NCBI GenBank assembly: GCA_038851075.1
Contig: JAWCLG010000011.1
Coordinates: 1 to 33,669 of the forward strand
Source: Candidatus Hadarchaeales archaeon
GTDB lineage: Archaea; Hadarchaeota; Hadarchaeia; Hadarchaeales; Hadarchaeaceae
DNA: 33,669 nt
Direction of reading: 5' to 3'
This document shows positions 1-15,946 of this stretch, in pieces. Numbering within the stretch: position 1 is the first letter of the stretch; each line of letters opens with the position of its first letter. A program made the position numbers and the translations under genes. A model generated the notes under the pieces. It had not been told where the DNA came from, did not search any database, and worked only from the letters and a program-made list of their open reading frames with translations.

Positions 1-5
1 ACCAG

Positions 6-3000
6 GTGACCCTGCTCAACGCACTGAAGTCTCCATTCTACACCAGCAGCTGGGTGCAGGGTGAGAATTTCAAGTATCCTGGAGAGCTTGTCGACGAGGA
101 GTACTACTGGAGGGTGAAAGCGAAGGACGACGCGGGAAACGTTGGAGAAGACTGCGGGGACACGTGGTTCAGGGTGGACACCAAGCCACCGGTTGCTCCT
201 TCCCTCAGCTGGCCAACCTACGGCGAAAACGTGAACGACAGCACGCCTAACCTCAGGTGGACGTACGATTACGCGGGGGGCGAGGTCGGAGGCGGAAACG
301 AGAAGTCGAAGCCCGCCTCATACAGAGTCTGGATCGCACACGATGTCGACTTCACAGAACTAGTTTTGGACTCGGGTTGGATGGCAGATCCAAACCTCGA
401 GGACGTGAATGAGAACTGGGAGGTGCCCGTTGAGAACCTCCTCCCGGACAACGTCAACCACTACTACTGGAAGGTGGGAATCAAGGACGCGGCCGGAAAC
501 GTCGGGGAGAACTCCGAGGTGTGGATATTCTGGATCGATACAGTCAAACCGCCTAAGCCGGATCCCGTCTCTCCGGAAAACAACTGGTGGGTGTCATCGA
601 CCGAGAACCTCCAGTGGACATCTGTTGAGGACAACTCGAAACCCGTCGTTTACAGGGTATGGGTCGCTCGCGATGAGGAGTTCACGATGGTGGACAGGGA
701 CTCCGGATGGAGAACCGAGAACTGGTGGAAGATCTCCCCGCCGCTTGTGGACAACTGGTACTGGTGGAGAGTGCAGGCAATGGATAACGCTGGAAACCTG
801 AGCGAAAATGCAGACGCCAGAAGATTCCTGGTGGACACGCAGGCTCCCGGAAAGACCCAGCTTCTGGCACCAGTTGAGGGGGAGAACATGAAGGACAACA
901 AACCAACCCTGCGCTGGGTGGACAACATAGAGGACCCAGCCCAGCCGGTGCTCTACTACGTGTGGGTGGCGAAAGATCAGGGGTTCACGCAGATTTACTG
1001 GGAAACAGGGGCATGGATCGAGGAGAACGAAGTGGAGGTTGGAACAGAACTTCCCGACAACGTCTACTACTGGAAGGTCGGGATAATGGACAACCTCGGA
1101 AACATCGGTGAGAACTCCGACTATTCCTGGTTCAGAATCGACGTGACCAAGCCGCCAAAGCCAGACCTGTACAGGCCTGCGAATAACACTTCAACCGAAA
1201 ATCTATCAGTTGAGCTGGAGTGGTCTCATCTCACAGACGAATCGGGCATAACTTATCATCTCCAAGTTGGAGCCGGATCAAACTTCGAAATGCTGGTGGA
1301 TAACGACAAGCTGAAGGAGAACATTTACCAGTTCACGGCCCCGCGGACAGGACTGTATGTCTGGAGGGTCTGCGCATACGACAACGCGGGGAACATCGGA
1401 GAATGGTCGGACAACTACGTGTTCACAGTTGGCATGTGGCATCTTGCAGAGAACTGGAGCGGGACGATGGGGGTGCTGGTTTCATGGCTGCAGGCGGAGG
1501 GATGGTCCGGGGATGTGAACGCGCCCGTGGGATGGGTGAGCACGGATACATGGGCGGGATCAGTTGTAGTGCCTGTTTCATGGTTCACAGCCGAATTCTG
1601 GAGCGGAGCGATGGGGGCACCGGTTGCTTGGAGCGAGACGGAGTCCTGGAATGGATCAGTTAACGCTCCCGTCAGCTGGCTGAATGTTGAGTCCTGGAAT
1701 GGATCAGTTAACGCTCCCGTTTCATGGCTGCAGGCCGAGGTATGGTCCGGTGCTTTGAACGCGCCTGTTGGGTGGATGAACGCCGAAACCTGGTCCGGGA
1801 GCTTGGGAACGTTCACCCCGGGCTGGTGCCTCGTGCAGAGCTGGTCAGGGGCCGTTCTAGTTCCGGTTGCTTGGGTGCAGACGATGACATGGAGCGGGAC
1901 GGTGAGTGCTCCGTCCCAATGGTCAGTTGCCGAGTCATGGAACGGGTACGTCGGAGTGGTAGTTTCATGGAACGTCGGAGAAACTTGGGCAGGCGCGATA
2001 GGGGCTCCGGTGGCTTGGGTGAACACGGAAACTTGGGCCGGAAAGGTATACGCGCCCGGTCCCGCACCAACCCTGATTTACCCGTCCAACAACTCAGCCG
2101 TACACGATAACGCCCCAACGTTCACATGGGACAACACTTGGGTCGCGGACAACTGGGAGATATGGGTCGACAATGACAGCAACTTCGACACTCCGGTATT
2201 CGTGGAGAACACGGTCAATAACTTCTTCAACTCGCCCCAGCTTGGAGATGAGAACTATTACTGGCGCGTGCGTGGCTGGCTCGGTCCGTCCGCATCTCCC
2301 TTCACAACGTATTCCGTGCTCATAGACACAGTCAGGCCGACCGTGCCGTTGAAGTCTGACATAGCAGAGGACACAGGAAAATCTGACTCTGACATGATAA
2401 CCAATGACGACAACATAAAGTTCATGTGGGGCGCCTCCTCTGATAGTTCAAACTCACCAACCGGAGAAAAGGCAGGAATCAGATGGTACGAGATAATTGT
2501 TGACGATGATTTGTTGCCTCCGTACGAAATTGCAGAAAATGTGGCGGGGCAGGAGATTTACATAGAGGTTCCGGAGGGCACGTGGAAGTGGATAGTCAGG
2601 GCCTGGGACTGGGCCGGCAACGTGAGCGAAAACGAGGCTCCATGGACGCTGATCGTCGACTTCACGCCTCCCGCTCCTCCCTCACTAATAACGCCGGCCA
2701 ACAACTCCGCAACGAAACAGACATCGGCCCTCCTGTTCCAGTGGGAGAACATGGCGAACTCCGACAACATCTGGAAGTACTGGGTTCAGATAGACAACGA
2801 CCAGAGCTTTCCTGGGAACCATCCGAACAAAACGAATACATATCCCACCGTCAACTACATCACAAAGTACTTCATCTATGACCCCAAGGATGAGAACTAC
2901 TGCTGGCGCGTGAAGGCTTACGACATCGCCGGAAACGAAGGCGACTGGTCTCAGGTTTGGTGTGTGATGATAGACACCAGAGCACCGATGTCTCCTGGAA

Positions 3001-4620
3001 AGTATCAACCTGTGGACAATGAAAACATAACATCATCAACCGTCCTATTCGTCTGGGGCGAGACTAATGACCAGTCTTACTCTCCAACTGGTGAGGTGGC
3101 GGGAATCGAGACCTATGAGATATGGATAGATGAAGATCTGAACTTTGGCTCGCCATATCTCGTCGAGAACTTCTCCCCGACTGGAACGGGATCCGTGGAG
3201 TTCGAAATTTCCCTGCCGGACAACGTATACTACTGGCGCGTCAGAGCCTGGGACAGGGCGGGCAACCCCGGAGGCTTCGAAACCGCGTGGAAGTTCACAG
3301 TGGACAACACGCCACCTTCCGCACCGGATCTGGTTTCGCCAGATAACCTGACCATGATGAACGACAACAGACCCACATTCACCTGGACAGAGGTATATGA
3401 TGTGACCGGAGTGACATACGAGATATGGATCGATAACGTTCCGACCTTTGACGATAACCCGTTCGTGGACAACACGGAAAACACGTTCTATGCTCTTAGC
3501 CTCGAGAACGCGCTCACGGACGAGAACTACTACTGGAAGGTCAGGGCGTGGGATGGAAAGAACTGGAGCGAGATCAGAAAGCCCGGACCGTTTTCTGGAA
3601 TAAATTCCCTGCTGCTGGACACGAGAGGACCGCCGGCTCCGAGTTCCTCTCCTGTGGTACAGATAGAGGGCAAGTGGTATGCCGGAGACGGGCTTATAAC
3701 CGGAGACAACCAGCCGTCCGTCCACTGGAACATGGTCACAGACCTCTCGTACTCTCCGACAGGAGAGGTCTCAGGGGTGAGGTATTACGAGCTGGAGATA
3801 GATAACGACAACGGCTTCACGTCGGTCGAATATCGTTGCTTCACATCCGACAACGTCTTCAACTACCTGGACGATAACTACCCGGTCGGAGCCGGGTTCC
3901 CGGATGAAAACTACTCCTTCAGGATCAGGGTCTGGGACTGGGCAGGGAACCACGGGGACTGGAGCCCCATCTGGAGTTTCATAGTTGACACGACACCTCC
4001 CACGGTTCCTGAACTCAAGGCACCGGATAACAATGCCGCGGAAAACGTGGGCATGGCATCCCTTGAATGGTACGATTCCTATGACGCAACGGGCGTGGAC
4101 CACTATTACATAGAGGTGGATGATGATCCTAGCTTCCTGACGCCGCTCGATCCCGGGTTCTTCTCTGATGATCCCACGAACCTAAAGACCACAGCAGTGG
4201 TGGTGACATTTCCTGAGGATGGCAGATACTACTGGCACGTTAAAGCGATCGACAAAGCTGGGAAGGAGAGTGCCTGGTCAGAAACCTGGGAGGTTGTGAT
4301 TGACTGTGTGAAGCCGCCGGTACCCGATCCTCTCACGCCGGTGGACAACTATCTCACTTCGGATAATACTCCGACTTTCCACTGGACCAGCGTTGAGGAC
4401 AACACAGAGACAACTCCACATGTGAGCGGTGTGGAAAACTACGTCCTTCAGATAGATGACAGCCCGGCGTTCACCTCTCCTGCCAGCTTCGTCACGCAGG
4501 AGAATATGCTCACCATCCCGGCCGACAATTCCCTCGCGGTCGGCGCATGGTACTGGAGGGTGTGCGCTGTCGACAGGGCCGGGAACCAGGGCGACTGGTC
4601 GGAGAACTTCAGGATAAACA
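6..4620 (+). repeat. About 13 FN3/Ig-like protein modules (~100 aa) in the giant protein, interrupted by the Trp-repeat block
   Basis: Recurring YYWRV.A.D.AGN....W.F.VDT.PP..P.L..P signature; counted by eye as 5 copies before 1437 and 8 after 2063. Confidence 0.85.
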
Positions 4621-7600
4621 TCACGGATTTGGTCCTGACTCTCGCGCTATCTGACAACATCGTCAACCCAGGGGAGAACTTCGCGATCTCCGGAAGGGCG
4701 AGCTGGCAACCCGAGAACCTGCCCGTTGACAACAGACCGGTGTATGTGTACGTTGATGACAATCTCATCGATACGTTGTACACCGACAACTACGGATGCT
4801 ACTCCACCTCTTACCTGACGAACGCCCTCGGTACGCATCAGGTCAAGGTGGCGATAACTGACAACCACGGAGTATATGAGGAAAACGTGGTGACCTTCAG
4901 CGTCGAGACGCTCACTGTGACAATAATGCTGGACGATTACGTGGCCAACCCCGGAGAGAGCATCGCGATATCCGGCCAGGTCCTTCGCTGGCTGGACTGG
5001 GAAAATGCTGTTCCAGAGAACAGGAGCGCGACTGACATTGTGATATACGTTGATGAGAACTATCAGACCACGCTTCACCCTGATGAAAATGGAAACTACA
5101 GCGGAGAGATCACGGCTCCTGAAAACCTGGGAGCGCACACAGTGTATGTGGACATCGAGAATCCGGACGGCATCACGGGAGATAACCAGACCAACTTCCA
5201 GGTCAAAACCGTGCACCTCACGTTCTCATTCGAACGCAGCATGGCCAACCCTGCCGAGAGGCTGAGGTACTCAGGTGTGGCTACCCTACTGCCGGACGGG
5301 ACCAAGGTGAGCGGCAAGACGGTCGAGGTCTGGCTGGGGGACACCCTCAAGAGCACCGCCCAGACCAACCCAGACGGGAGCTACTCGGGCGAGGTCATAG
5401 TACCCGAGGAACTCGACACGTACCAGTACACGGCAAAACTCTGGGCAGACGACTGGATAAAGGGAGAGAACACCGCGCTGGTCACCGTGAAGAGAATAGA
5501 TCTAGTAGCGTTTTACGATGACAACACGGTGAACCCCGGGGAGCCGAACCAGATTTACGGAACCGCTTTCCTCCTGCCAGACAACGAGCCGGTGGTAGGA
5601 CAGCAGCTCACGTTCACGCTTGAGGATGATCAGGGCAGGATCGTTGGAGGGGCAACGGGATACACCGGCCCGACCGGAGCGTACGCCATCAGCTTCACCA
5701 CGCCCAACGTCTATGGAGTCTACAGAGGAATGGTCAGCATCACCTATCAGGTGTTTTCGGCGGTTACGGTGAGGTATCTCTACGTGAAGGCGGGCGTTAT
5801 CCCGCTGTACTTCGACGACAACGTTGTGAACCTGACGCAGGACTTCTGGATTTCCGGAACAGCCAGAGTGCTGCCAGACAACGCTCCGGTCGCAAACGCA
5901 GAGGTGAAGATATACAGGGACGGAATACTGTACGACAACACGGTCACGAACGAAAACGGACAGTACTCGTATAAGTACACCGAGGACTCGATCACTCCCG
6001 AAAAACGCACAATAAAGGTAGTTGCGGTAAGCCCGGAGGGAATAGTGTGCGAAAACACGCAGTACTTCGAAAAGCGCGTCCTTCAGTACGAGCAGCTCGT
6101 GTCATACGACTCCCACGATCAGTTCGACAGCGTGCTGAATCCGGGAGAGAACTTCTACCCGAGCGTCCTGATCGAAGAGAATAACGGGACACAGGCTTTC
6201 AAAGTTCAGAAATCTCTGGACACCGACCTGTTGAGGGCCAAGGTCGGAGCAAACGTCTACGTGATGTCGCACATAAGGGAAGGTCGCTGGAAGGTGCCCA
6301 GCCTCCAAACCGCACCGAGCTCTCCCGGACAGTACTATATCATGATCGACGTCATGGGTTCCAGCGAGAACGGGATAACCACGCCCGCTTACGGCCTGCA
6401 GATGTTCTACTATGTCAAGACTCTCTCACTGGAGCTGCGCGCCACCGACTACACGGTGAACCCAGGCCAGCAGAATGTGGTTGCATACGGCACGGTCAGG
6501 CTTGTTCCGGATGGGACTCCGGTCGCTGGAGAAAACGTGGCGATATCGTTTGCCGGTGAAAACTATCTGTTAACCACGGCCGATAACGGATACTACTCAT
6601 GCGTTCTGAACATCCCAATGACCTCCAGAGTTGAGAACCTGAGGGCGAGCATAGTGGACTCCAGAGGGCTTGAGATGGAGAACACGGTGACGATAACGGT
6701 AGGGTCAATAGATATATCGTTAATCCCGGAGACTGAGATAGCAGGAGAGGGGCAGCCGTTCAGAATGTATGGAACTGCGTTGCGCAGGCCAGAAAATACT
6801 CCTGTTCAAAACACTGAGGTGAAGTTCTACATTGACAACTCATACATCAAGAGCGTGTATACCGGCACAAATGGTGCGTATGAAATCATACACACCTTCA
6901 CGACGCGCGGAATATACGAGATCAGAGTGGAGATTGTCGACGCTGATGGTATAGTCGGGGAGAACTACAGGAGTGTAATCGCTGGCAGGCCGCTGCGCAT
7001 CTGGGACAACGTTGGCATAAAGGACGTTTCTGGCACGCCTATACAGGCTACGATGAAGTTCTACGAGCAGGGCACCTCGAATGTCGCTTTTCAGATCACC
7101 ACATCCTCGGACGGTACCTATGACGTCTGGGGATTCGCAGGATACTTCGATCTGGAGATAAGCTTCCCAAGCCAGGCCGTGACCCTGAAATATGAGAACT
7201 TAAACCTTGACGGGTTCAGCGCCTGGGATGAGATAAGCAGATTCATAGAGGCCGACACACCGCCTTCGGCGTATGTTTCAGTTCCGGGAACCAGGGGCAC
7301 TCTCAGGGGAATCGCGATCCGTCCACATCAGGTGTTCACAGAGAACTACAGCAGGCTGGTCGTCACATTCACGTACAGCAGCTACATCCAGCAGGTGGGA
7401 GACATATGGTTCCTAAGAGTGTACAGGACCAAGGGATACCAGCTTGAGAACCGTATGGTGGAGGGAGGCTGGAAGGAACTGGGAGGGACTCTGGATGTTG
7501 CCAACTACAAGATCACCGCGATAGACAACGAGGACCCGCCCGCGGTGGCGTACGTCGTGGCGGAGTACGACCCGCTCTCCGCGGTTCTCCTCACTTTTGA

Positions 7601-10600
7601 AAATGCGGTTTCCACAATTCAGGAAACCGCCGGGCTTCTTGGAGAGATGTCGCAGAGCCTCATGGATAACGCCCTCCTGCTCGCCAGCGTTGTGGATAAT
7701 CTGAAGCAGACCGTGGGCAATCTCGCGACACAGGAGAACATCGCGGCACTGGCGGATATACAGGGGCAGATAGCAAACATCCTGGACAACGTCTCCGGCA
7801 TCCTCAACCAGATTGTGAATCTCGAAAACTCTTCACTGGGGCTTACAGAGAACCTCTGGAGCGCGTTCATCCAGCTGTCACAGCTTCTCGAGAACGCGTC
7901 CAGAAGCTCTCAGGTCGACGAGATAAGGGAGCAGCTCTCCCAGGCATTTGCGGTGCTTCAGGGCCTGGCTCCCAGAGAGTCTCTGAGCATAGACCCATCC
8001 ATAGCCTGGCTTGAAATCTACCAGGGTGAGACCACGGAGTTCTTCGTCAGAATAACAAACACGTCCACATCGGACCTGTCGGTTCATCCTGAGAAGGGCG
8101 TCAGAAACTGGCCTGAGTCTCTTGAGCTCGACAGATCTATCAGGATGTCTTTCGATCCCTCTGTCCTGAGCCTGAAGTCAGCGGAAACCCGCACGCTGAC
8201 GGTAACGGTAGTGGCCGGAACGAACGTGCCGGCGGGCGTATACTCCGGAGAGGTGCTGATCAAGGGCACAGGCGTGGAGAAGGCGCTCCCCGTTGCCATG
8301 AGAGTGCGTCCGTGGGCTAGGGGACTCTTTGACCTCAGCGTGACCTCGCTTGTCAGGACCAGCTATCCTGGAGGAAAGGTCCCGGTGGAGGTACAGCTGA
8401 AGAACATGGGTATCCAGGCCGCTGACGCCGAGGTAACTGTCACCCTGGAGAGCGTATCAGGTGCTAGGCTGGCCACCGTGATGGGCGAGACGGTCAAGGT
8501 GGATGTGAGCGAGACCAAGGTTCAGACATACGAGATCGAGGTGCCGGTTGATATAGAGGAGGGGCAGTACGTTATCAAAGCCGTTGCGGTTTATCACTGG
8601 AACGGAGATAATGTGACGATTTCAGGAGTGGACACGGTGGAGATTGAAAAGTTCATAAAAGTCACGCTTAGAACGCTGGCGCGCGAGGTTGAGCCCGGCG
8701 GAAAGATTCCTTTTGAGGCGGAGTTCAGAAATACCGGGTCGGAGTGGACCGAGGTCAACGTTAAGCTGCAGCTCCTGACACCGGCTGGAGAGCCCTGCTG
8801 GTCGGAATCTGTCAGAATATCTCTCGAGCCAAACTCTGTTGAGAGAAGAACGTATGAGGCGGATGTACCATCAGACACCGCTGGAGGAACGTTCGTGCTC
8901 ACGGCATCCGGCGAATACGTGTGGCTGGAAAAGGCGATTTCAATCACCGAGGCAGAGGCAGAGGTTCAGGTGAAAAGCCCGCCGTTCACCTTCTTCGGCA
9001 TCTCAATACCCTGGTTGATAATCTCGGCCGTGGCAATAGTGGCCGCGGGTATCGCTGGAAGGTTTGGATACAGGTACTACCAGAAGAGAAAAGCTGCAAG
9101 GCGCAGGTTTGAGGCGAGACTGTTTACCGCCGAGCTTCCGAAACCCGGGCCGGACGCCATTAAGATAGGAAAGCTCGCGGAGGCACCTGGAGACGCTCAC
9201 CTTGACATAAATGACCTGAGAATGCATGTCATGACGGCAGGCGCCACCGGAGGCGGAAAAACTATCTCGTCGATGGTAATTGCCGAGGAGGCGCTGCTGA
9301 AGGGCAGGAACGTGATTGTCTTCGACCCGACCGCACAGTGGACCGGGTTCCTGAAGAAGTGTACCTCCGAGAAGATGCTGTCATATTACAAGAACTTTGG
9401 GATGAAGGATAGCGATGCCAGGGGATTCCCTGGTGTGGTCAAGCTTGTAACAAACCCGAGGCAGAAGCTGGACATGAAGGAGCTGCTCGGTGAGGAGGCA
9501 AGAGGAAAGATCACCGTGTTCGTGATAGAGCGTCTGAAGCCGGGAGATATGGACGTGTTCGTAACCAACGTAATACAGTCCATATTCGAGTCACAGCCGA
9601 TGGAGTATCCGGGGCTGAAGACCCTGCTCATATTCGACGAGGTACACAGGCTTCTCCCGAGGTTCGGAGGGACCGGTGCCGGAGTCATACAGCTCGAGCG
9701 CGCCGTCCGTGAGTTCAGAAAGTGGGGAATAGGAGTGATGCTCGTGTCCCAGGTCATGGGAGACTTTGAGGAGGAGATAAGATCAAACATAAGGACTCAG
9801 GTTCAGTTCTGGACCAGGGAGAAGGAGGAACTTGACAGGATATCAAGGACATACGGAGAGGAGCACATGCGTTCGGTCTCCAAGGCCCCGGTTGGATTCG
9901 GCATGCTAGTCAATCCGGATTACAACAGAGGCAGGCCTTACTACATCAACTTCAGGCCGATTCTGCACGAGGTTCAGAGGCTGGATCCAAAGCAGCTCGA
10001 CAGGTACTACGCGGCCGATGAGAGGATAGAGAACATCAAGTACAAGCTGAAGAAGCTGGAGGAGAAAGGAGTTGATGTCTTCGATCTGCGCATTGAACTC
10101 GGGCTGGCAATGCGCAAGCTTGAGGAGGCTTCGTTCGACATGGTTGACGCTTATCTCGAGTCGCTCGAGCCGAGGGTGGAGAGCGTGTGCGCCCAGCACA
10201 AGATGGCCGGATTGAAGCGGGAGATTGAGCTGAGGTCGGAGAAGGAGATAAAGGAGACGCAGATGGCGGCGCTCAGAGAGCGTGAGCGCAGGCTCGGAGC
10301 GGTTGCCAGACGCCCGCCGGAGATTGTGGAAGCCTACAAGGAACTGCTCGCGCGCGCAACTCCGGTGGCAACAGGAGAGACAGGGAAGCCGCTCAAGGAG
10401 GAAGAGGTGGTGCATCCGATGGCGGAGAAGGGACCGCCAAAGAGCGAGGAGGAGATAGAGAAACAGATGGAGGAGATTGAAAAGCCGAAAGAGGCGGCTG
10501 AGAAGAAGGTCGTGGAGGAGAAAGAGGAGCAGGTCAAAAAGGCAAAAGAGGAGAAGAAACCGGCCGCAAAGGCCAAGGCGAAAAACGGCGCTGCGAAAAA

Positions 10601-10625
10601 GTCCAACGGTAAAGGCAGAAGGTAG
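6..10625 (+). CDS. Giant cell-surface protein (5' truncated): FN3/Ig-like repeats, Trp repeats, Ig-like repeats, coiled coil, CARDB-like domains, single TM helix, C-terminal HerA/FtsK/VirB4-like (DUF87-type) ATPase
   Basis: The frame is open from the window edge and begins mid-repeat with no signal peptide, so the true start is upstream. TM helix FFGISIPWLIISAVAIVAAGIAG (~8990-9060) is followed by basic YYQKRKAARRR. Walker A GATGGGKT 9240-9263, VIVFDP, Walker B LLIFDEVH 9624-9647 and REFRKWGIGVMLVSQ are the characteristic HerA/FtsK-superfamily motifs. Lys/Glu-rich tail. Confidence 0.9.
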   Translation: MTLLNALKSPFYTSSWVQGENFKYPGELVDEEYYWRVKAKDDAGNVGEDCGDTWFRVDTKPPVAPSLSWPTYGENVNDSTPNLRWTYDYAGGEVGGGNEKSKPASYRVWIAHDVDFTELVLDSGWMADPNLEDVNENWEVPVENLLPDNVNHYYWKVGIKDAAGNVGENSEVWIFWIDTVKPPKPDPVSPENNWWVSSTENLQWTSVEDNSKPVVYRVWVARDEEFTMVDRDSGWRTENWWKISPPLVDNWYWWRVQAMDNAGNLSENADARRFLVDTQAPGKTQLLAPVEGENMKDNKPTLRWVDNIEDPAQPVLYYVWVAKDQGFTQIYWETGAWIEENEVEVGTELPDNVYYWKVGIMDNLGNIGENSDYSWFRIDVTKPPKPDLYRPANNTSTENLSVELEWSHLTDESGITYHLQVGAGSNFEMLVDNDKLKENIYQFTAPRTGLYVWRVCAYDNAGNIGEWSDNYVFTVGMWHLAENWSGTMGVLVSWLQAEGWSGDVNAPVGWVSTDTWAGSVVVPVSWFTAEFWSGAMGAPVAWSETESWNGSVNAPVSWLNVESWNGSVNAPVSWLQAEVWSGALNAPVGWMNAETWSGSLGTFTPGWCLVQSWSGAVLVPVAWVQTMTWSGTVSAPSQWSVAESWNGYVGVVVSWNVGETWAGAIGAPVAWVNTETWAGKVYAPGPAPTLIYPSNNSAVHDNAPTFTWDNTWVADNWEIWVDNDSNFDTPVFVENTVNNFFNSPQLGDENYYWRVRGWLGPSASPFTTYSVLIDTVRPTVPLKSDIAEDTGKSDSDMITNDDNIKFMWGASSDSSNSPTGEKAGIRWYEIIVDDDLLPPYEIAENVAGQEIYIEVPEGTWKWIVRAWDWAGNVSENEAPWTLIVDFTPPAPPSLITPANNSATKQTSALLFQWENMANSDNIWKYWVQIDNDQSFPGNHPNKTNTYPTVNYITKYFIYDPKDENYCWRVKAYDIAGNEGDWSQVWCVMIDTRAPMSPGKYQPVDNENITSSTVLFVWGETNDQSYSPTGEVAGIETYEIWIDEDLNFGSPYLVENFSPTGTGSVEFEISLPDNVYYWRVRAWDRAGNPGGFETAWKFTVDNTPPSAPDLVSPDNLTMMNDNRPTFTWTEVYDVTGVTYEIWIDNVPTFDDNPFVDNTENTFYALSLENALTDENYYWKVRAWDGKNWSEIRKPGPFSGINSLLLDTRGPPAPSSSPVVQIEGKWYAGDGLITGDNQPSVHWNMVTDLSYSPTGEVSGVRYYELEIDNDNGFTSVEYRCFTSDNVFNYLDDNYPVGAGFPDENYSFRIRVWDWAGNHGDWSPIWSFIVDTTPPTVPELKAPDNNAAENVGMASLEWYDSYDATGVDHYYIEVDDDPSFLTPLDPGFFSDDPTNLKTTAVVVTFPEDGRYYWHVKAIDKAGKESAWSETWEVVIDCVKPPVPDPLTPVDNYLTSDNTPTFHWTSVEDNTETTPHVSGVENYVLQIDDSPAFTSPASFVTQENMLTIPADNSLAVGAWYWRVCAVDRAGNQGDWSENFRINITDLVLTLALSDNIVNPGENFAISGRASWQPENLPVDNRPVYVYVDDNLIDTLYTDNYGCYSTSYLTNALGTHQVKVAITDNHGVYEENVVTFSVETLTVTIMLDDYVANPGESIAISGQVLRWLDWENAVPENRSATDIVIYVDENYQTTLHPDENGNYSGEITAPENLGAHTVYVDIENPDGITGDNQTNFQVKTVHLTFSFERSMANPAERLRYSGVATLLPDGTKVSGKTVEVWLGDTLKSTAQTNPDGSYSGEVIVPEELDTYQYTAKLWADDWIKGENTALVTVKRIDLVAFYDDNTVNPGEPNQIYGTAFLLPDNEPVVGQQLTFTLEDDQGRIVGGATGYTGPTGAYAISFTTPNVYGVYRGMVSITYQVFSAVTVRYLYVKAGVIPLYFDDNVVNLTQDFWISGTARVLPDNAPVANAEVKIYRDGILYDNTVTNENGQYSYKYTEDSITPEKRTIKVVAVSPEGIVCENTQYFEKRVLQYEQLVSYDSHDQFDSVLNPGENFYPSVLIEENNGTQAFKVQKSLDTDLLRAKVGANVYVMSHIREGRWKVPSLQTAPSSPGQYYIMIDVMGSSENGITTPAYGLQMFYYVKTLSLELRATDYTVNPGQQNVVAYGTVRLVPDGTPVAGENVAISFAGENYLLTTADNGYYSCVLNIPMTSRVENLRASIVDSRGLEMENTVTITVGSIDISLIPETEIAGEGQPFRMYGTALRRPENTPVQNTEVKFYIDNSYIKSVYTGTNGAYEIIHTFTTRGIYEIRVEIVDADGIVGENYRSVIAGRPLRIWDNVGIKDVSGTPIQATMKFYEQGTSNVAFQITTSSDGTYDVWGFAGYFDLEISFPSQAVTLKYENLNLDGFSAWDEISRFIEADTPPSAYVSVPGTRGTLRGIAIRPHQVFTENYSRLVVTFTYSSYIQQVGDIWFLRVYRTKGYQLENRMVEGGWKELGGTLDVANYKITAIDNEDPPAVAYVVAEYDPLSAVLLTFENAVSTIQETAGLLGEMSQSLMDNALLLASVVDNLKQTVGNLATQENIAALADIQGQIANILDNVSGILNQIVNLENSSLGLTENLWSAFIQLSQLLENASRSSQVDEIREQLSQAFAVLQGLAPRESLSIDPSIAWLEIYQGETTEFFVRITNTSTSDLSVHPEKGVRNWPESLELDRSIRMSFDPSVLSLKSAETRTLTVTVVAGTNVPAGVYSGEVLIKGTGVEKALPVAMRVRPWARGLFDLSVTSLVRTSYPGGKVPVEVQLKNMGIQAADAEVTVTLESVSGARLATVMGETVKVDVSETKVQTYEIEVPVDIEEGQYVIKAVAVYHWNGDNVTISGVDTVEIEKFIKVTLRTLAREVEPGGKIPFEAEFRNTGSEWTEVNVKLQLLTPAGEPCWSESVRISLEPNSVERRTYEADVPSDTAGGTFVLTASGEYVWLEKAISITEAEAEVQVKSPPFTFFGISIPWLIISAVAIVAAGIAGRFGYRYYQKRKAARRRFEARLFTAELPKPGPDAIKIGKLAEAPGDAHLDINDLRMHVMTAGATGGGKTISSMVIAEEALLKGRNVIVFDPTAQWTGFLKKCTSEKMLSYYKNFGMKDSDARGFPGVVKLVTNPRQKLDMKELLGEEARGKITVFVIERLKPGDMDVFVTNVIQSIFESQPMEYPGLKTLLIFDEVHRLLPRFGGTGAGVIQLERAVREFRKWGIGVMLVSQVMGDFEEEIRSNIRTQVQFWTREKEELDRISRTYGEEHMRSVSKAPVGFGMLVNPDYNRGRPYYINFRPILHEVQRLDPKQLDRYYAADERIENIKYKLKKLEEKGVDVFDLRIELGLAMRKLEEASFDMVDAYLESLEPRVESVCAQHKMAGLKREIELRSEKEIKETQMAALRERERRLGAVARRPPEIVEAYKELLARATPVATGETGKPLKEEEVVHPMAEKGPPKSEEEIEKQMEEIEKPKEAAEKKVVEEKEEQVKKAKEEKKPAAKAKAKNGAAKKSNGKGRR
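1437..2063 (+). repeat. 13 tandem 16-aa Trp-rich repeats (consensus WxxxExWSGxVxAPVx; 48-nt period)
   Basis: Units such as WLQAEGWSGDVNAPVG, WSETESWNGSVNAPVS and WLNVESWNGSVNAPVS (one unit has 17 aa). Exact 32-nt direct repeat GAGTCCTGGAATGGATCAGTTAACGCTCCCGT at 1641-1672 and 1689-1720. Confidence 0.95.
4621..6985 (+). repeat. About 8 second-class Ig-like modules (macroglobulin/carboxypeptidase-regulatory-like) in the giant protein
   Basis: Repeated D..VNPGE...I.G....LPD..PV and T..NG.YS motifs, e.g. LSDNIVNPGENFAISG, LDDYVANPGESIAISG, YDDNTVNPGEPNQIYG, ATDYTVNPGQQNVVAYG. Confidence 0.75.
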
Positions 10626-10651: not shown

Positions 10652-10665
10652 CAACCCTTATAATA
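10652..10665 (+). promoter_or_regulatory. Putative BRE/TATA promoter for the 10695 gene
   Basis: CAACCCTTATAATA ending ~30 nt before ATG 10695. Confidence 0.55.
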
Positions 10666-10694
10666 AAATGCGCCCACTTTTAACGTGTGGTTGA

Positions 10695-11486
10695 ATGAGG
10701 GCGGCGGTTAAAGTGCTGGCGATATCTGCGGTGGCCGCACTGGTCTTCACCGGGGTCTATCTATCGCTTAAGGTGACTTTTGAGCTGGCAGGGTTGGATT
10801 TCGTGGCAGATGGCGACTGTTTTATCCGGGTCAGTTACCACACGAACCGCCCCGCGGTTGCTAGGCTTTTGTCATATGATAACAGGGTGCTGGAGGAGGT
10901 GGAGCTGCCTTCTGGATCAGACCATGCCGAAATTAAAATAACAGAGAACCGCAGCAATCCCAAAGAGCCGGTTTTTCTGATAATAGAACAGGGTGGCAGA
11001 GTTATCTGGACCGGTGGTTTCTCGATGCCGGTTGTCCAGCTAAAGCTCATTGGCATAGTGGAGTGGGGCTGGGATCCTGATGCCGGCCTGAGCACCATCA
11101 AGTGCTTGGCTGTCCAGATAAGCAACGGAGGAGGGCTACCAGCGCATGTGTACAGGATAAGCGGTCTGCTGGACGGAAGACTCGTTGGAGGGACTTCAAC
11201 CGAGTGGGAGCCTGCTGGAGAGGGAATTGTGGACAGATGGATAATGCCTGGTGCCGAGGACAATCTGACCGTGGAGTGGAGTGGACCGTCGCTTTCACCA
11301 GGATACCACGGATTCAAGCTCGTCGCCGAGGACATTGACGGTGAAGAAGTCGCAGGTATGGTGTTCCCAGCCTTCGTCAACGTTCCAAGCGAGTACATTC
11401 ACGGCGGGAGGATGGTCGATGAGTGGAGCGGGGAAGTCGGGGCACCGGCTGGATGGTACAGATCGGAGAACTGGAGATTGAGGTAA
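10695..11486 (+). CDS. Membrane-anchored or exported beta-rich protein with a C-terminal Trp-repeat motif
   Basis: N-terminal hydrophobic segment VLAISAVAALVFTGVYLSL; beta-strand-rich body; ends GRMVDEWSGEVGAPAG-WYRSENW, in register with the 16-aa repeat of the giant protein. Confidence 0.8.
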   Translation: MRAAVKVLAISAVAALVFTGVYLSLKVTFELAGLDFVADGDCFIRVSYHTNRPAVARLLSYDNRVLEEVELPSGSDHAEIKITENRSNPKEPVFLIIEQGGRVIWTGGFSMPVVQLKLIGIVEWGWDPDAGLSTIKCLAVQISNGGGLPAHVYRISGLLDGRLVGGTSTEWEPAGEGIVDRWIMPGAEDNLTVEWSGPSLSPGYHGFKLVAEDIDGEEVAGMVFPAFVNVPSEYIHGGRMVDEWSGEVGAPAGWYRSENWRLR

Positions 11487-11555: not shown

Positions 11556-12365
11556 CTACCGGGTCCTGCCAATGTGCTTCAGAATCTCTCCAGCCAGATT
11601 TACAAATCCTCTGGATGCCCTGCACCTGGGTCTGTGCTTCACGACAGGTATTCCTGCCGCGGTGGCCTCCTGCACCAGCCTGCTTTCGGGAATCTGGGCG
11701 ACCACCGGCCACCCTAATGATTTTTTCACCTCCGTGATGGACAGCTCAAACGGGTATCCTGCCACCCTGTTTACGACCACGCCGAATATCGGAATTTTGT
11801 ACTTCTCTGCCGCCCGGAATGTCTTGAGAGTGCTGGCTATCGTGGGAACATATGGATTTGTTACTATTATCATCTCGTCGCAGGCTTTCAGCGCCACGAC
11901 CACTTCCTTGCCTATGCCCGGAGCGGTGTCTATCAGGATGAGCTTGAACATGCGCTTGAGGGGTTCTATCAGCTCCCCGAGGTCAGAAACGTATATCTCA
12001 TCCTCGAACGCTATTGATCCGAACACCGCCTTTACGCCCTGGCTTTCAGTTATGGCGTCCTGAATCGGAAGTCCCCTGGAGACCACATCGTGCACGGTTA
12101 TCTCGGGGGTGAGCTCTCCGAAGTGGAGACAGAGGTTTGGGGCGCCGAAGTTGGCGTCCAGCAGCAGCACCCTGTCCTCACCCCACATGTTCGCGAGCGC
12201 AATGCCGGTGTTTACCACTGTGGTGGTTTTTCCTACGCCCCCCTTGCAGGAAAAAACGCCTATGACTCTTGCCTCGCGCTTTTCTATGAATGGGGAATCC
12301 ATCTTCCTGCCGTCCAGCAGGACTTTCAGTTTTCTCGTCGCGCGCGGTTTTTTCAACAGCGACAT
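11556..12365 (-). CDS. minD: MinD/ParA-family ATPase
   Basis: Deviant Walker A KGGVGKTT, LLLDAN..APNL, ILIDTAPG, GVVVNRV, IPES..VQEA...GIPVV; basic ~30-aa N-terminal extension. Confidence 0.85.
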   Translation of the reverse strand: MSLLKKPRATRKLKVLLDGRKMDSPFIEKREARVIGVFSCKGGVGKTTTVVNTGIALANMWGEDRVLLLDANFGAPNLCLHFGELTPEITVHDVVSRGLPIQDAITESQGVKAVFGSIAFEDEIYVSDLGELIEPLKRMFKLILIDTAPGIGKEVVVALKACDEMIIVTNPYVPTIASTLKTFRAAEKYKIPIFGVVVNRVAGYPFELSITEVKKSLGWPVVAQIPESRLVQEATAAGIPVVKHRPRCRASRGFVNLAGEILKHIGRTR

Positions 12366-12393
12366 TATTTCAGTGAAAATTTTGTCTTTCTTC

Positions 12394-12405
12394 TATAAAA
12401 TTAAT
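12394..12405 (-). promoter_or_regulatory. Putative TATA box for the MinD-like gene (leaderless)
   Basis: Minus strand ATTAATTTTATA ending 28 nt upstream of ATG 12365. Confidence 0.5.
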
Positions 12406-12425
12406 TTGGTAGCAGCGCTGGTCTA

Positions 12426-13331
12426 TCAGACGAGGGCGTCGAGCAGCTTTGATATCCCGGTCTCGACCACCTTGATCTCCCTCTCGATCCTGTCTAGTCT
12501 CCTCTGATTTTTCTCATCGTTTTCCTTAAGGGTCTCCACCATCTCCTTTAGCTTTGCGAACTCCACCGGGTCAAGCTCGGACTTCACTTTGGCGGCCAGC
12601 TGGGTGGAGACGAACTTTTCAAAATCAGCTTTGGGCAAGGCCTGCTTAACAGCAGTGTCCACCTGGCTGAGGGTCTTCGACATGTTTTTCACGCTCTCCT
12701 CCACGACTCCGAGCCTCACCAGCATGTCTGTAACCTCCTTCAGCCTTCTCTGAAACTCCATAAAGGCGCTCATCACCTTGTCAGACATCAGCTCGACTTC
12801 ATCCCTGAGTTTCTGTATCCGCATTATGTTTCTCCTAGCATCGTCCGCCATACCCACGACCGTTTCGAACCCCTTGAACTTGGCCATGGTCTCCCTGTAA
12901 CCGCCAATCTCCTTTCTCAGTTCCTTTATCTCCTCGCTCACTAGGGAGAACTTCGTCTTCAGACCCTCTATGTCGTTATCCCTCTTCATTATCATTGACC
13001 TGAACTCCTCGGGCTTTATGCCCTCGAGAGCACCCAAGGCTCTCTCAGCCTTGGCCTTGGCATCAGCGCTGTCCTTTGCCTGGCTGAGGATCATGGACCT
13101 CAGCTCACCGACCTTCTCGTTGAGCATGGATATTCTCGTGTCGGTCGGTTCCCTGAGTGCCATGAGACCCATCACGCTGGCCTCCAGCTGATCCATTTTG
13201 ACCTTTAGTGCCTTGTCAATCTTAGATTCCAATGCAGGCTCGGGCGCGGGAGATTCCTCAGGTTTTTTCTGTTCTTCGGGCTTTTCTGAGGATGCCTCCT
13301 TCTTTTTACCGCGTTTTTTCAGCATCTTCAT
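12426..13331 (-). CDS. Cytoplasmic coiled-coil protein of unknown function
   Basis: 301 aa, heptad-patterned and rich in E/K/L/M/R, no TM segment, charged disordered N-terminus; GGTGA lies just upstream of the ATG AAG ATG start region. Confidence 0.8.
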   Translation of the reverse strand: MKMLKKRGKKKEASSEKPEEQKKPEESPAPEPALESKIDKALKVKMDQLEASVMGLMALREPTDTRISMLNEKVGELRSMILSQAKDSADAKAKAERALGALEGIKPEEFRSMIMKRDNDIEGLKTKFSLVSEEIKELRKEIGGYRETMAKFKGFETVVGMADDARRNIMRIQKLRDEVELMSDKVMSAFMEFQRRLKEVTDMLVRLGVVEESVKNMSKTLSQVDTAVKQALPKADFEKFVSTQLAAKVKSELDPVEFAKLKEMVETLKENDEKNQRRLDRIEREIKVVETGISKLLDALV

Positions 13332-13445
13332 TCACCATAATCTATGGGCACTGGCATTTTATCTTTACCGCTGGTTGGCAAATCTCTCGGGCTTGGTTAT
13401 CCTCCAGCGGAGGGGCTTAATACCACAGAAACAGGATTTGAATTG

Positions 13446-13931
13446 ATGGAGCGAAACGAAATAGCGATAGTTCTGCTCCTAGCCATGCTGGCCTGCGCGT
13501 GGGCTGTCTGGCTATGGGGCGGTTCGTTTGGCGCCGGCACCTCAAATGATAATCTGGAAGGCCTGTTGGACAGAACATCCCTTTTCAGGGGTTATCGGGC
13601 ATATATGGATAACTCGCTGGGCCTCTGTTTCACCACAGGGTCGAGCATGGAGCCGGCCCTCAGGACCGGAGATACGGCTATATGGGTCAAAGTTCCATTT
13701 GAAAATCTTCAAGTTGGAGATGTCATCGTTTACTCACATACCGTCACAGTAGGAGAGAACAGGGGTCAGATCTTCATAGTCGTTCACAGGATCATTAACA
13801 CAGTGGAGGACGGAGTTTTCACGAAGGGAGACAATCTCTCCAGCCCTGATGCTTACAAAGTGAGACCGGGAGATTTTATAGGTCTTGTTAGGGGCGTCCT
13901 GTTCACATCCTCCGGATCGTGGGAGAGGTGA
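13446..13931 (+). CDS. S26 signal peptidase I, ER/archaeal (Sec11/SipW) type, predicted active
   Basis: N-terminal TM; box B TGSSMEPALRTGD (Ser nucleophile), VGDVIVY, IVVHRII (His base), TKGDN...PD. Start moved from 13344 to ATG 13446, with TTAATA ~24 nt upstream. Confidence 0.85.
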   Translation: MERNEIAIVLLLAMLACAWAVWLWGGSFGAGTSNDNLEGLLDRTSLFRGYRAYMDNSLGLCFTTGSSMEPALRTGDTAIWVKVPFENLQVGDVIVYSHTVTVGENRGQIFIVVHRIINTVEDGVFTKGDNLSSPDAYKVRPGDFIGLVRGVLFTSSGSWER

Positions 13932-13935
13932 GAGC

Positions 13936-14370
13936 ATGAGGAGAGCAACTGTTAAAAAGATTGAGAGCGGGATTGTCCTAGTTTTACTTTTCGCAACGAC
14001 TTTCAGCTGGATATTTGCTGTTTCGAGGCTGTTTTCCGAGCAGAAGCTGAATGACGTGTCGGAATATTTTGACAACTTCAGGGTTCTGCTCAGTGATGAG
14101 ATCAATATAACATCCGCTGGAAACTGGGACATGGGGCAGACCATCAGGGAGGGCGATATGGTCATGTGGGTACGGCCTGATCAGGGAAAGGTTGGAACCG
14201 GTGACCTGGTGCTGTGCAGGGATGAAGATAATTCAGTTATCGCACGCAGGGTAATTTCAACCGATAACGGATGCTTTCAAGTCAGGGGAGACTCGCTGGG
14301 AAGTGAGACTTATTCAGTTTCTTTTACAGACATCGTCGGACAGATTATCGGAGTGATTTACGAGAGGTGA
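13936..14370 (+). CDS. S26 signal-peptidase-like paralogue lacking catalytic residues
   Basis: Co-linear with the upstream peptidase (TIREGDMVMW, TGDLVL, RRVI, VRGDS, DIVGQIIGV) but SSMEP is WDMGQ and VHRI is ARRV; GAGGTGA RBS overlaps the upstream stop. Confidence 0.75.
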   Translation: MRRATVKKIESGIVLVLLFATTFSWIFAVSRLFSEQKLNDVSEYFDNFRVLLSDEINITSAGNWDMGQTIREGDMVMWVRPDQGKVGTGDLVLCRDEDNSVIARRVISTDNGCFQVRGDSLGSETYSVSFTDIVGQIIGVIYER

Positions 14371-14374
14371 GGTT

Positions 14375-15040
14375 ATGTCAGCTCCCGCTGAGGAAGTAAA
14401 GATTGGTAAAAAGGACCTGATTAAACTTTTCGTGAAGAAGCGTTGGAAGCACCTGATCCTCGCTGGTGCGTGTATCGCGGTCCTGTCCTTCGTGTTCTGG
14501 CTTGTATTCAAGCCGCCTGAGCCACAGCCAGCCTGGGTGTCAGGGCCGATTTTCAACCAGCCGGGAGAAAACGGCCTTCTCGCCGCGGTTGGTGAGAACA
14601 CCGGGATCGAGAATATATACCTCGCGGCATGGGGAAAATATGGGCCCGCGTACAATCCGAGGGAAGACCTAGCCGCACAGGCAGGTGCGGTTGACGGGGT
14701 GATAAGCTCCAGCGGGCAGTGCGTGCAGATATGGGCGAACAGGCGGTTCGACATAGTCATTGCGGTCAGGGCGAAGACTCCGGAAATAGCCTACGTGGCG
14801 AGGGAAAACATGTGGGTGACGCTTGCCGCGACGGTAAACGGGTTCACCATAGGTCCCGAAAATTCAACCGACCGTAAGGAATACGTGTTCGAGCAGTCGG
14901 GTTACGGGACTACCGAGGGATACATGCGCGTGAACGTTGTGTGGGACAACGACGGGAACGGTTACGAGCTCATGCCGCAGGATAACCTGAAGATAATGTT
15001 GCTGGGCTTCTACACCTGGAGATATCCTGGAAGACTTTAA
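14375..15040 (+). CDS. Exported or membrane-anchored protein, paralogue of the 15110-15922 product
   Basis: GAGGTGAGG RBS; KKRWKH followed by hydrophobic helix LILAGACIAVLSFVFWLVF; shares six ordered motifs with the convergent gene. Confidence 0.8.
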   Translation: MSAPAEEVKIGKKDLIKLFVKKRWKHLILAGACIAVLSFVFWLVFKPPEPQPAWVSGPIFNQPGENGLLAAVGENTGIENIYLAAWGKYGPAYNPREDLAAQAGAVDGVISSSGQCVQIWANRRFDIVIAVRAKTPEIAYVARENMWVTLAATVNGFTIGPENSTDRKEYVFEQSGYGTTEGYMRVNVVWDNDGNGYELMPQDNLKIMLLGFYTWRYPGRL

Positions 15041-15073
15041 GTTGCACCTCAGTGTACCCAGCCCCAGCTGATC

Positions 15074-15097
15074 AAATAAAAAAATAAAAAAAAGAAA
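15074..15097 (-). terminator. Oligo-T archaeal terminator for the 15110-15922 gene
   Basis: Minus strand TTTCTTTTTTTTATTTTTTTATTT starting 12 nt after the TAG. Confidence 0.7.
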
Positions 15098-15109
15098 TGC
15101 GCTGCTGGA

Positions 15110-15922
15110 CTAGCTCCAGATATACAGCGCAATTGTGTCCAAGCTAAGGGTTCCGCCGGCCGGTAGTTTGAAGCCAGCCCCTCCATTGTTGAACACGCAG
15201 TTGACCCTTGCATATCCACTAGCATACGCTCCGTTCTGTGTCCACGGCACGTTGTTGTCAAAGACGAACTCATAGCCAGTGTTCTGCGTGTTTTCAGTCC
15301 CTGAGTGTGCCCCGCTGAAGCTGAGATACCCATACATATTGTCCATGTTCACGTATGCCACGAGCTTCGCATCCTGCTTGTTTCCGGTGTAGCCTGCGTC
15401 GGCCTTAACCTTGCAAGCCATGACTATGGTGAACGGATACTCGTACGGAATCGTTGCTGTGTCAGAGTTTGCGGTTATTATAGCGTCAGAGGCTCCATCC
15501 AGCAACCAGTTGTCATTGTTTTCCCCGGATATGTGCCTGCCGAAATTGGTTGAGTTTGGTGCAAGATTGTCGCAGATGAGCACGTTCTCTATCCCACTGT
15601 TTTCAGGTACGCCTGCGGTAAAGCCAAGCAGAAACTGTCCATCGGCGGTCAGCAGCTGCCCCGAGATCAGCGAAACGGTCCCCTGTCCAGAAACCGTTGA
15701 TGGTGTGGACAGTGCCCATCCAGCTAGCCCTGCCACTATCACTATTGCAACAGCTGCGGTAACCCATTTCCACTGTGCCATTCTTTTTTCCACCTCCATT
15801 TTTTTTATTGGTGCCCTCGCCAGAGGTCCGGGCATAAAATCAAGTCTCCCCTTGCAACGCGGGCATTCCTTCGGGTGTTGCACCCTCGGGTTCCACTCAT
15901 ATCCACAGCGGGGGCACCTCAT
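15110..15922 (-). CDS. Exported protein with N-terminal C4 Zn ribbon, TM/signal helix and Gly/Asn/Ala-rich beta domain (candidate filament or surface subunit)
   Basis: CPRCGYEW.PR...PKECPRCK, then WVTAAVAIVIVAGLAGWAL; alternative start at Met48 (15781) with GGAGGTG RBS. Confidence 0.8.
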   Translation of the reverse strand: MRCPRCGYEWNPRVQHPKECPRCKGRLDFMPGPLARAPIKKMEVEKRMAQWKWVTAAVAIVIVAGLAGWALSTPSTVSGQGTVSLISGQLLTADGQFLLGFTAGVPENSGIENVLICDNLAPNSTNFGRHISGENNDNWLLDGASDAIITANSDTATIPYEYPFTIVMACKVKADAGYTGNKQDAKLVAYVNMDNMYGYLSFSGAHSGTENTQNTGYEFVFDNNVPWTQNGAYASGYARVNCVFNNGGAGFKLPAGGTLSLDTIALYIWS

Positions 15923-15946
15923 ACACTTAAATCTAGTCCCCCCAAC

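Follow-up and report, generated by a model that had tools for sequence, protein, structure and literature searches.

Giant surface proteins of the archaeal phylum Hadarchaeota carry long arrays of a 16-residue tryptophan repeat, and a fragment of this repeat forms the C-terminus of a small membrane-anchored protein, P0002, which is encoded next to one of the giants. Both genes lie on a 33,669-nucleotide stretch of DNA from a Candidatus Hadarchaeales archaeon (GenBank assembly GCA_038851075.1, contig JAWCLG010000011.1), which is termed “the window”; it represents one complete contig (C11) of a genome of ~1.0 Mb in 29 contigs. The repeat fragment of P0002, called the Trp tail in the following, is a real and conserved feature. 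The tail may dock like-with-like onto Trp arrays, a reading that we regard as the likeliest of those considered and yet somewhat short of probable. The features that carry the argument are the following (residue numbers refer to amino acids, aa; AF2, AlphaFold 2; pLDDT, predicted local distance difference test; Ig, immunoglobulin; ORF, open reading frame).

11406..11477, + strand: Trp tail, residues 238-261 of P0002 (GRMVDEWSGEVGAPAGWYRSENWR), whose last Trp is followed by a conserved Arg
10695..11486, + strand: ORF of the small protein P0002 (263 aa plus stop), a member of an unnamed membrane-anchored family with two β-sandwich domains
10698..10769, + strand: N-terminal membrane helix of P0002, residues 2-25 (AF2 helix and hydropathy, hydrophobic residues 1-27)
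10779..11384, + strand: two β-sandwich (Ig-like) ectodomains of P0002, residues 29-109 and 114-230 (AF2 pLDDT mostly above 90)
1437..2060, + strand: Trp array of the giant, residues 479-686, 13 tandem units with a period of 16 and one unit of 17 (13 profile matches)

Homology of the tail to the Trp array

Positions 11406-11474 of the window correspond to GRMVDEWSGEVGAPAGWYRSENW, i.e., residues 238-260 of P0002. This stretch aligns without gaps to the repeat of the giant, as the initial annotation had claimed, and the strings quoted there are found where they had been placed. The count of “1.5 copies” given in the same annotation is exact: the tail comprises positions 3-16 of one unit followed by positions 1-7 of the next, and thus represents a repeat fragment at the end of a 263-aa protein, not a long tandem array. 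Compared with pairs of array units, it is identical in 9 of 23 residues to each of units 1, 3, 5 and 6 (unit 1: WLQAEGWSGDVNAPVGWVSTDTW), and it matches 12 of the 13 conserved positions of a phylum-wide unit profile, which was compiled from 154 units out of 20 arrays.

Among the six-frame ORFs of the genome with a length of 30 aa or more, 18,622 in number, only three match a loosely written regular expression of the unit: P0002, the giant and an additional array protein, which is encoded on contig C18. A profile of 17 columns, based on 29 array windows in the W7 register, retrieves the tail with 19.2 bits (E=0.0012), and the next non-array ORF follows at 8.7 bits (E=2.6). As a result to the contrary, a 16-column profile starting at the first Trp (W1 register) does not report the tail at E≤10; the tail lacks this Trp and has a Gly in its place. 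Conversely, the columns of the P0002-family profile that represent the tail (228-252) also match array proteins, in up to 35 stretches of a single protein; at the level of profiles, this is an independent confirmation of the homology between tail and array.

Two further searches complement these results. A word-based search with the tail region (residues 222-263) among proteins of 144-461 aa, a method that needs exact shared words of five residues, had 2 candidates and recovered nothing but the query itself. Five other genomes were scanned with a stringent DNA pattern of the unit core, which gave 28 matches, most of them in arrays and two in tails of the P0002 family (genome G023, contig C4; genome G001, contig C19), and reversed-pattern controls gave zero to one match per strand and genome. 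Two stray single matches were inspected and are spurious ORFs, one of them with an in-frame TGA; three more isolated singles lie on contig C23 of G001 and on contig C1 of G025 (at 174714 and 435102), and the G001 match as well as the one at 435102 contain an in-frame TGA.

Similarity between tail and array had also been noted for the DNA itself. This is correct for the 33-mers at 11424 and 1599, which have 25 of 33 bases in common, and it is this short similarity that speaks for a non-functional remnant of a local duplication or for a chance resemblance. The similarity does not hold for the tail as a whole, where the best unit shares just 42 of 69 bases, as expected from the shared residues alone; both this low identity and the significance of the profile match count against a remnant or a coincidence.

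Conservation and selection

The tail is kept in all four orthologues compared. The C-termini of the three orthologues of P0002 (57-59% identity) read ...AENWEGSVNAPAGWHRPESWRM, ...AEGWSGGIWAPAGWYRPENWRM and ...AEEWSGGVEAPAGWYRSENWRI, respectively, and W244, G246, A250-W254 (APAGW), R256, E258, W260 and R261 are invariant in 4/4 sequences. Two paralogues in genome G023, which are 27% identical to P0002, carry ~2.3 units (e.g., WERIEQWNGIAENHFGVEHWKGIIRAPVRWEVATRWWIRG). In the tails of the four orthologues, synonymous sites are saturated (synonymous divergence, dS, 0.7-1.4), and the ratio of nonsynonymous to synonymous divergence (dN/dS, Nei-Gojobori) is 0.08-0.39 in five pairs, the dS of the sixth pair being saturated; the corresponding ratio for the body of the protein is 0.19-0.29. 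Moreover, the tail shows traits that are absent from the arrays, namely a G at position 16 and an R after the first and the last Trp of the half unit.

Because the tail is conserved among orthologues, evolves with a low dN/dS and is present in relatives at 27% identity, these comparisons indicate that it is translated, constrained by purifying selection and older than the genus. The initial annotation had stated that orthologues without the tail would turn it into a remnant; instead, the orthologues keep it under purifying selection. A remnant or a chance match retains only a vanishing probability and is refuted. Recent gene conversion or duplication was considered separately as the source of the tail, and is rejected by the DNA identity of 42/69 and by the dN/dS data.

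The P0002 family and its tails

P0002 was described as a membrane protein in the initial annotation, and both the hydropathy and the predicted N-terminal helix bear this out; the helix is predicted to act either as a signal anchor or as an unusually long signal peptide. In the AF2 model (8-sequence alignment, mean pLDDT 83.7) both β-sandwich domains are complete, and residues 236-263, including the tail, are unfolded in the monomer (pLDDT below 50). The tail is situated at the outermost end of P0002, beyond the membrane anchor and the two Ig-like domains. A C-terminal sorting signal consisting of a hydrophobic helix and a basic end was also considered for this region and rejected: the tail is not hydrophobic, and the hydropathy plot shows the N-terminal segment only.

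No Pfam or NCBIfam family covers P0002, and a Pfam scan at E≤1 of eight family members gave no consistent family. Foldseek finds only generic tandem-Ig matches with template modelling (TM) scores of ~0.23-0.34, such as transglutaminase C-terminal domains, SiiE, pairs of Fn3 domains and an Enterococcus WxL-interacting protein. A profile search of 1.84 billion representatives identified 295 relatives at E≤0.001, which define the family by the N-terminal hydrophobic helix, two β-sandwich domains and conserved motifs, all of which are present in P0002. The invariant columns (alignment A1) fall into domain 2, W124-G125 and N144-x-G146-x-x-P149.

The sequences of most relatives either end precisely with the final strand of domain 2 (“...VP”) or run into other domains, and some members have extra C-terminal domains of 200-500 aa; the tail is accordingly a modular addition. 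Trp-rich tails occur in P0002-P0007, P0009, P0011, P0014, P0029 and P0058, and in a degenerate form in P0010. Within the subclade the tail measures 1 to 2.5 units, and the Trp-rich tails of other members are divergent. In a quick maximum-likelihood tree of 92 bodies, which was computed with the tails trimmed and without the fragments P0029 and P0058 (both lack the N-terminal half), all 10 tail-bearing rows fall into one branch of 12 rows (SH-aLRT 93), together with two tail-less rows. Family members are present in 13 of the 65 genomes of the order, and the tail columns are reached at four places in three genomes (G000, G001 and twice in G023). The tail-less members in G013, G032, G025, G035 and G009 have housekeeping genes as neighbours, and their visible flanks contain no array.

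The variable length of the tail is compatible with a second rival to docking, a self-assembly tag: the tails of several P0002 copies would stack into a short Trp-repeat stack and oligomerise the ectodomains independently of the giant. The tail-specific conserved residues (the G at position 16 and the two Arg) and the conservation of the tail in the G023 paralogues, which have no giant next to them in the visible flanks, agree with such an assembly. It leaves unexplained, however, why the gene was inserted directly after the giant in the genus, and we consider it improbable.

The Trp repeat and its arrays

The giant, which is 5'-open at the contig end, combines an extracellular repeat protein with a putative cytoplasmic motor:

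3..10625, + strand: giant surface protein, 3,540 aa visible, with Ig-like domains and the Trp array on the outside, a single transmembrane segment, and a HerA-like ATPase in the cytoplasm (Pfam, hydropathy)
8991..9059, + strand: transmembrane segment, residues 2997-3019, followed by KRKAARRR (hydropathy windows)
9159..9815, + strand: HerA/DUF87-type P-loop ATPase region, residues 3053-3271 (Pfam, NCBIfam and PDB matches)

Pfam assigns Big_13 and Ig_Rha78A_N (both Ig-like) as well as HerA_C and DUF87 toward the C-terminus, and the nearest solved relatives of the ATPase part are HerA helicase chains in the PDB (E=5.5e-8). The segment at residues 2997-3019 is the only hydrophobic one in the hydropathy profile. 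By the positive-inside rule, the basic cluster KRKAARRR that follows this segment would place the N-terminal ~3,000 residues outside the cell and the ATPase inside. In this adhesin-like giant, ~3,000 residues on the outside and a HerA/DUF87-type motor ATPase on the cytoplasmic side are parts of one chain, joined by one transmembrane segment. HerA-type giants are present in 13/65 genomes of the order; the genome studied here encodes such a paralogue on contig C25.

In the giant the unit takes the form W-x3-E-x-W-(S/N/A)-G-x-V-x-A-P-V-x. Throughout the phylum the consensus is W-x-(L/V)-(I/V)-E-(T/S)-W-(T/S)-G-x-(V/I/L)-x-A-P-A-x with a period of 16, the common form being WQLIETWTGTVEAPAA, and position 5 is acidic (E in 90% and D in 9% of the 154 units). 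An array query matches 33/65 genomes of the order and 33/66 of the phylum, often several times per genome; array-bearing open frames reach 7,944-8,249 aa, and matches are frequently located at contig ends. The Trp array is a module of surface proteins across the whole phylum Hadarchaeota. No Pfam or NCBIfam model covers it, the Protein Atlas gave no usable lead, and literature searches on Hadarchaeota and on Trp-rich or β-solenoid repeats found, among the papers listed, no published description of the repeat or of these proteins. The Trp repeat is a lineage-specific, previously undescribed archaeal repeat family. Several units of the array at 1437-2060 read W-N-G-S, which constitutes an N-x-S/T sequon (the phylum consensus has W-T-G-T at this site), and N-glycosylation of the array at these sequons is possible.

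AF2 models of the array (20-row alignment) predict one strand of ~13 residues per unit, with a three-residue break at x-A-P. Foldseek against the PDB retrieves nothing at E≤0.001 with the array model. VIA-align retrieves β-helix proteins as the best matches, including tailspikes, with Z-scores of 13-15 over ~200 residues, where values under about 13 are common for repeats; among these matches are pertactin (Z 14.9, root-mean-square deviation 3.0, 206 residues), TibA (13.8) and Ag43 (13.6), and an outer-membrane-core (OMC) chain of the Dot type IV secretion system scores 14.2. Taken from these models, the array is probably a regular, solenoid-like all-β stack, and judging by the consensus, the odd positions of the unit (W1, L3, W7, V11 and A13) would form a hydrophobic face.

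The genome encodes one further array protein:

Contig C18, 10982-15532, - strand: second array protein, 5'-open, 1,517 aa visible (regular expression, profile)

This protein starts with ~20 regular Trp units, has a degenerate second block near residues 1030-1170 and continues after the arrays with a linker rich in Pro, a transmembrane segment and a basic end; it has no HerA domain. The tails of all four orthologues score higher on the C18 units than on the units of the neighbouring giant, and the C18 protein is a putative alternative docking partner.

Proposed docking of the tail onto Trp arrays

A unit and a half would be too short to adopt the repeat fold by itself; in the modelled monomer, the tail is disordered. 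It could become ordered by adding a strand-turn-strand to the open end or to the edge of a Trp array, which would be provided by the neighbouring giant and/or by the C18 array protein. Such docking would tie P0002 to array-bearing surface proteins, or it would seed or cap the folding of the array as the latter emerges at the membrane; the tail may accordingly serve as an anchor, a cap or a nucleator of the array. The most economical explanation would be that the tail folds by stacking on a Trp array: it is a repeat fragment in need of neighbours, is disordered in the model, is conserved and, within the genus, is encoded beside an array-bearing giant. The predicted topologies and models support a location of tail and array on the same, outer side of the membrane.

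The adjacency is consistent within the genus-level clade. The small gene directly follows the HerA end of the giant in 4/4 loci (genomes G000 and G001 and the metagenome loci L082 and L083, the latter found with four close orthologues, alignment A3). The giant carries an array in 2/2 loci in which the contig reaches far enough, with 13 units in the window and 16 in L083; the contigs of L082 and G001 stop before the array. The initial annotation had proposed to check whether orthologues keep the tail only where the array exists: in the clade the tail is kept and the array is present in both readable loci, and the two tail-bearing paralogues of G023 have no giant within the visible flanks.

The latter observation is one of several that weigh against docking. 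Arrays are far more common than tails (33/66 genomes of the phylum versus 3/65 of the order), and tail-less family members exist alongside arrays in G013, G032, G025, G029, G035 and G039. At the giant loci of other genera and at the C25 paralogue of the studied genome, a P0002 relative follows the giant in 0/9 cases (a tenth locus, in G039, comprises 182 bases only and was excluded). There is no co-variation of tail and array: the array of its own neighbour does not give a tail a higher score than foreign arrays do, and the tail of P0004 has its lowest score on its own. The array is ~2,300 residues away from the membrane anchor of the giant and the tail at most two Ig domains from its own; because of this distance, contact within one cell needs a giant that is folded back or contact during export, or else the contact occurs between cells. 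Finally, the array model is moderately reliable, with a pLDDT of 81 for the best of five models and of 68, 63, 57 and 49 for the others, along with the lack of Foldseek matches stated above. The scaffold-and-tag logic of the initial annotation accordingly persists in part: the homology and conservation of the tail, the adjacency in the clade and the shared outer side fit it, and a strict one-to-one pairing does not, given arrays without tails, the nine loci without a P0002 relative and the missing co-variation.

The main rival is a shared third component. The Trp unit would be a ligand-binding module for an envelope glycan, the S-layer, lipid head-groups or a partner cell, which the giant presents in many copies and P0002 in 1.5. 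Two Trp per 16 residues on one face of a strand, together with a conserved acidic residue, suit a binding surface, and a module of this kind would account for arrays in many surface proteins and genomes without a tail-bearing partner, for tails and arrays that do not co-vary and for orthologues of the giant that manage without the small protein. The binding sites of known aromatic repeats arise where neighbouring units of a folded array meet. A fragment of 1.5 units, disordered in the model, is unlikely to fold or bind alone; furthermore, the small protein is already anchored in the membrane, and the known families of binding repeats were not detected by Pfam or NCBIfam. On balance, a shared ligand is unlikely, albeit a serious candidate.

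More specific forms of the docking model are rather improbable. The tail might be an extracellular folding primer, whose 1.5 solenoid rungs, presented just outside the membrane, would seed or cap the arrays of giant adhesins that leave the translocon. Alternatively, it might be a receptor for the distal array in the giant of a neighbouring cell, and the resulting kin-specific contact between cells would be coupled to the cytoplasmic HerA-type ATPase of the giant.

Comparison with known systems

Several systems resemble the pair of tail and array in part, and those nearest in their logic are the paired motifs of amyloid signalling, curli nucleation and the ElrE/WxLIP chaperone. None of them is a family match, and no defining domain of any of them was detected.

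The HET-s motif is a β-solenoid that belongs to amyloid signalling. Paired amyloid-signalling motifs on adjacent genes include fungal NWD2/HET-S and the bacterial and archaeal BASS motifs (Dyrka et al., bioRxiv 10.1101/2020.01.06.895854). As in the locus described here, neighbouring genes share a short β-stack motif, and a short terminal copy is thought to template the other or to stack on it; the shared motif is C-terminal in the small protein, and in the giant it is internal, unlike in the signalling pairs. A further difference is that amyloid signalling links a cytoplasmic ATPase of the NOD-like receptor (NLR) type to a cell-death effector with one or two motifs each, whereas tail and array are located outside the cell, and one of the partners contains at least 13 units. 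Pfam detects no NACHT, NB-ARC, Bell or HeLo domain in the giant or in P0002 (the giant has HerA/DUF87 instead), and there is no sign of prion-like signalling.

In curli nucleation, CsgB seeds the β-solenoid subunits of CsgA, both of which are small secreted proteins that polymerise between molecules. By analogy, a membrane-proximal protein with the same type of repeat could seed or cap an extracellular β-solenoid; in contrast to curli, the array is located inside the chain of a single giant protein. Pfam gives no hit to Curlin_rpt, and CsgA (8c50_A, E=0.49) and FapC appear only as weak Foldseek rows for the array.

Short terminal tags that accompany a scaffold of repeated modules are also known from the cohesin-dockerin system, to which the initial annotation had compared the locus. 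Dockerin is a calcium-binding helical duplicate and binds to a different fold, whereas the tag of P0002 is a copy of the unit of the scaffold itself. As a family relationship the comparison fails: Pfam and NCBIfam yield neither cohesin nor dockerin in P0001 and P0002 at E≤0.01, nor in eight family members at E≤1. Aromatic cell-wall and choline-binding repeats are likewise short, tandem, Trp-rich surface repeats, but they differ in period and consensus, the organism is an archaeon, and no CW_binding or related Pfam family is hit.

Strand addition by an anchored protein is described for WxL surface proteins, where ElrE/WxLIP (DUF916/DUF3324) is a membrane-anchored two-domain chaperone that donates a strand to WxL-domain pilins (Sleutel et al., bioRxiv 10.64898/2026.10.17.759780). 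According to the same preprint, the WxL system is restricted to Bacillota. Common to both cases is a membrane-anchored tandem β-sandwich protein, encoded in a surface-protein cluster, that completes, or in P0002 would complete, a Trp-motif partner by addition of β-strands. In ElrE the anchor is C-terminal and the donated element is an internal hairpin, whereas in P0002 the anchor is N-terminal and the tail, a terminal one, repeats the unit of its partner. For the P0002 model, Foldseek lists a WxLIP chain (9i1y_B, E=2.1e-5) with a TM score of 0.23, which falls into the same generic range as transglutaminase, SiiE and Fn3 pairs. Donor-strand systems have an acceptor with an incomplete Ig fold and a groove, and a donor strand with alternating hydrophobic residues; the two domains of P0002 are both modelled as complete. 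Pfam scans, including that of the eight family members, gave no hit to DUF916, DUF3324 or PapD, and no usher-type family was detected in P0001 and P0002.

Genomic neighbourhood

The small gene may be transcribed separately from the giant, with a TATA-box-like element as its own promoter:

10657..10670, + strand: TATA-box-like CTTATAATAAAATG, 38 nt upstream of the ATG of the small gene, in the 69-nt gap after the stop codon of the giant

A scan for bacterial-type promoters and terminators around the small gene found nothing above shuffled sequences, and Rfam has no match over the whole window.

In the clade loci the small gene is followed by genes for a MinD-like ATPase, a coiled-coil protein and two signal-peptidase-like proteins, and then by two unnamed genes (~225 aa and ~275 aa). 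In the window this neighbourhood comprises:

11559-15946: conserved cluster around the giant, also found in L097 (G031:C29) and in L044 and L045 (G023)
13341-13928: signal-peptidase-like gene, TIGR02228 (archaeal signal peptidase I) with 56.8 bits, which passes the cut-off of 51.85
14357-15037 and 15113-15946: two related unnamed proteins, the latter with an N-terminal zinc-ribbon-like start (CxxC...CP)

The MinD-like ATPase scores 167.9 bits with TIGR01969, below the cut-off of 201.75, and the Protein Atlas gave no usable lead for the ~275-aa zinc-ribbon-like protein. Signal peptidases beside unnamed surface proteins recall the tapA-sipW-tasA arrangement. At the nine other giant loci, the coiled-coil gene follows the giant in 9/9 and a MinD-like gene is present in 5/9. 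The tail-bearing paralogues of G023 are flanked by parts of the same cluster, namely signal-peptidase genes and genes for unnamed surface proteins, including a relative of the zinc-ribbon protein. One family member without a tail, at locus L089 (G009:C11), adjoins a gene for a MinD-like ATPase (E=1.3e-31 to that of the window), and because of this arrangement the adjacency of the P0002 family and the MinD-like ATPase recurs outside the locus of the giant.

Significance

Across the Hadarchaeota, the Trp repeat is one of the main components from which giant surface proteins are built. A conserved short copy on a separate, anchored protein offers a handle on the function of the arrays in the form of a defined pair of peptide and array, which is important for a lineage that cannot be grown in culture. 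Should like-with-like stacking hold true, tail and array would join, as an extracellular archaeal case, the few systems known in which a short repeat fragment templates or caps a β-solenoid in another protein. If the tail were a folding primer or a receptor, it would constitute an archaeal extracellular counterpart of templated β-solenoid assembly as it occurs in amyloid signalling and curli nucleation.

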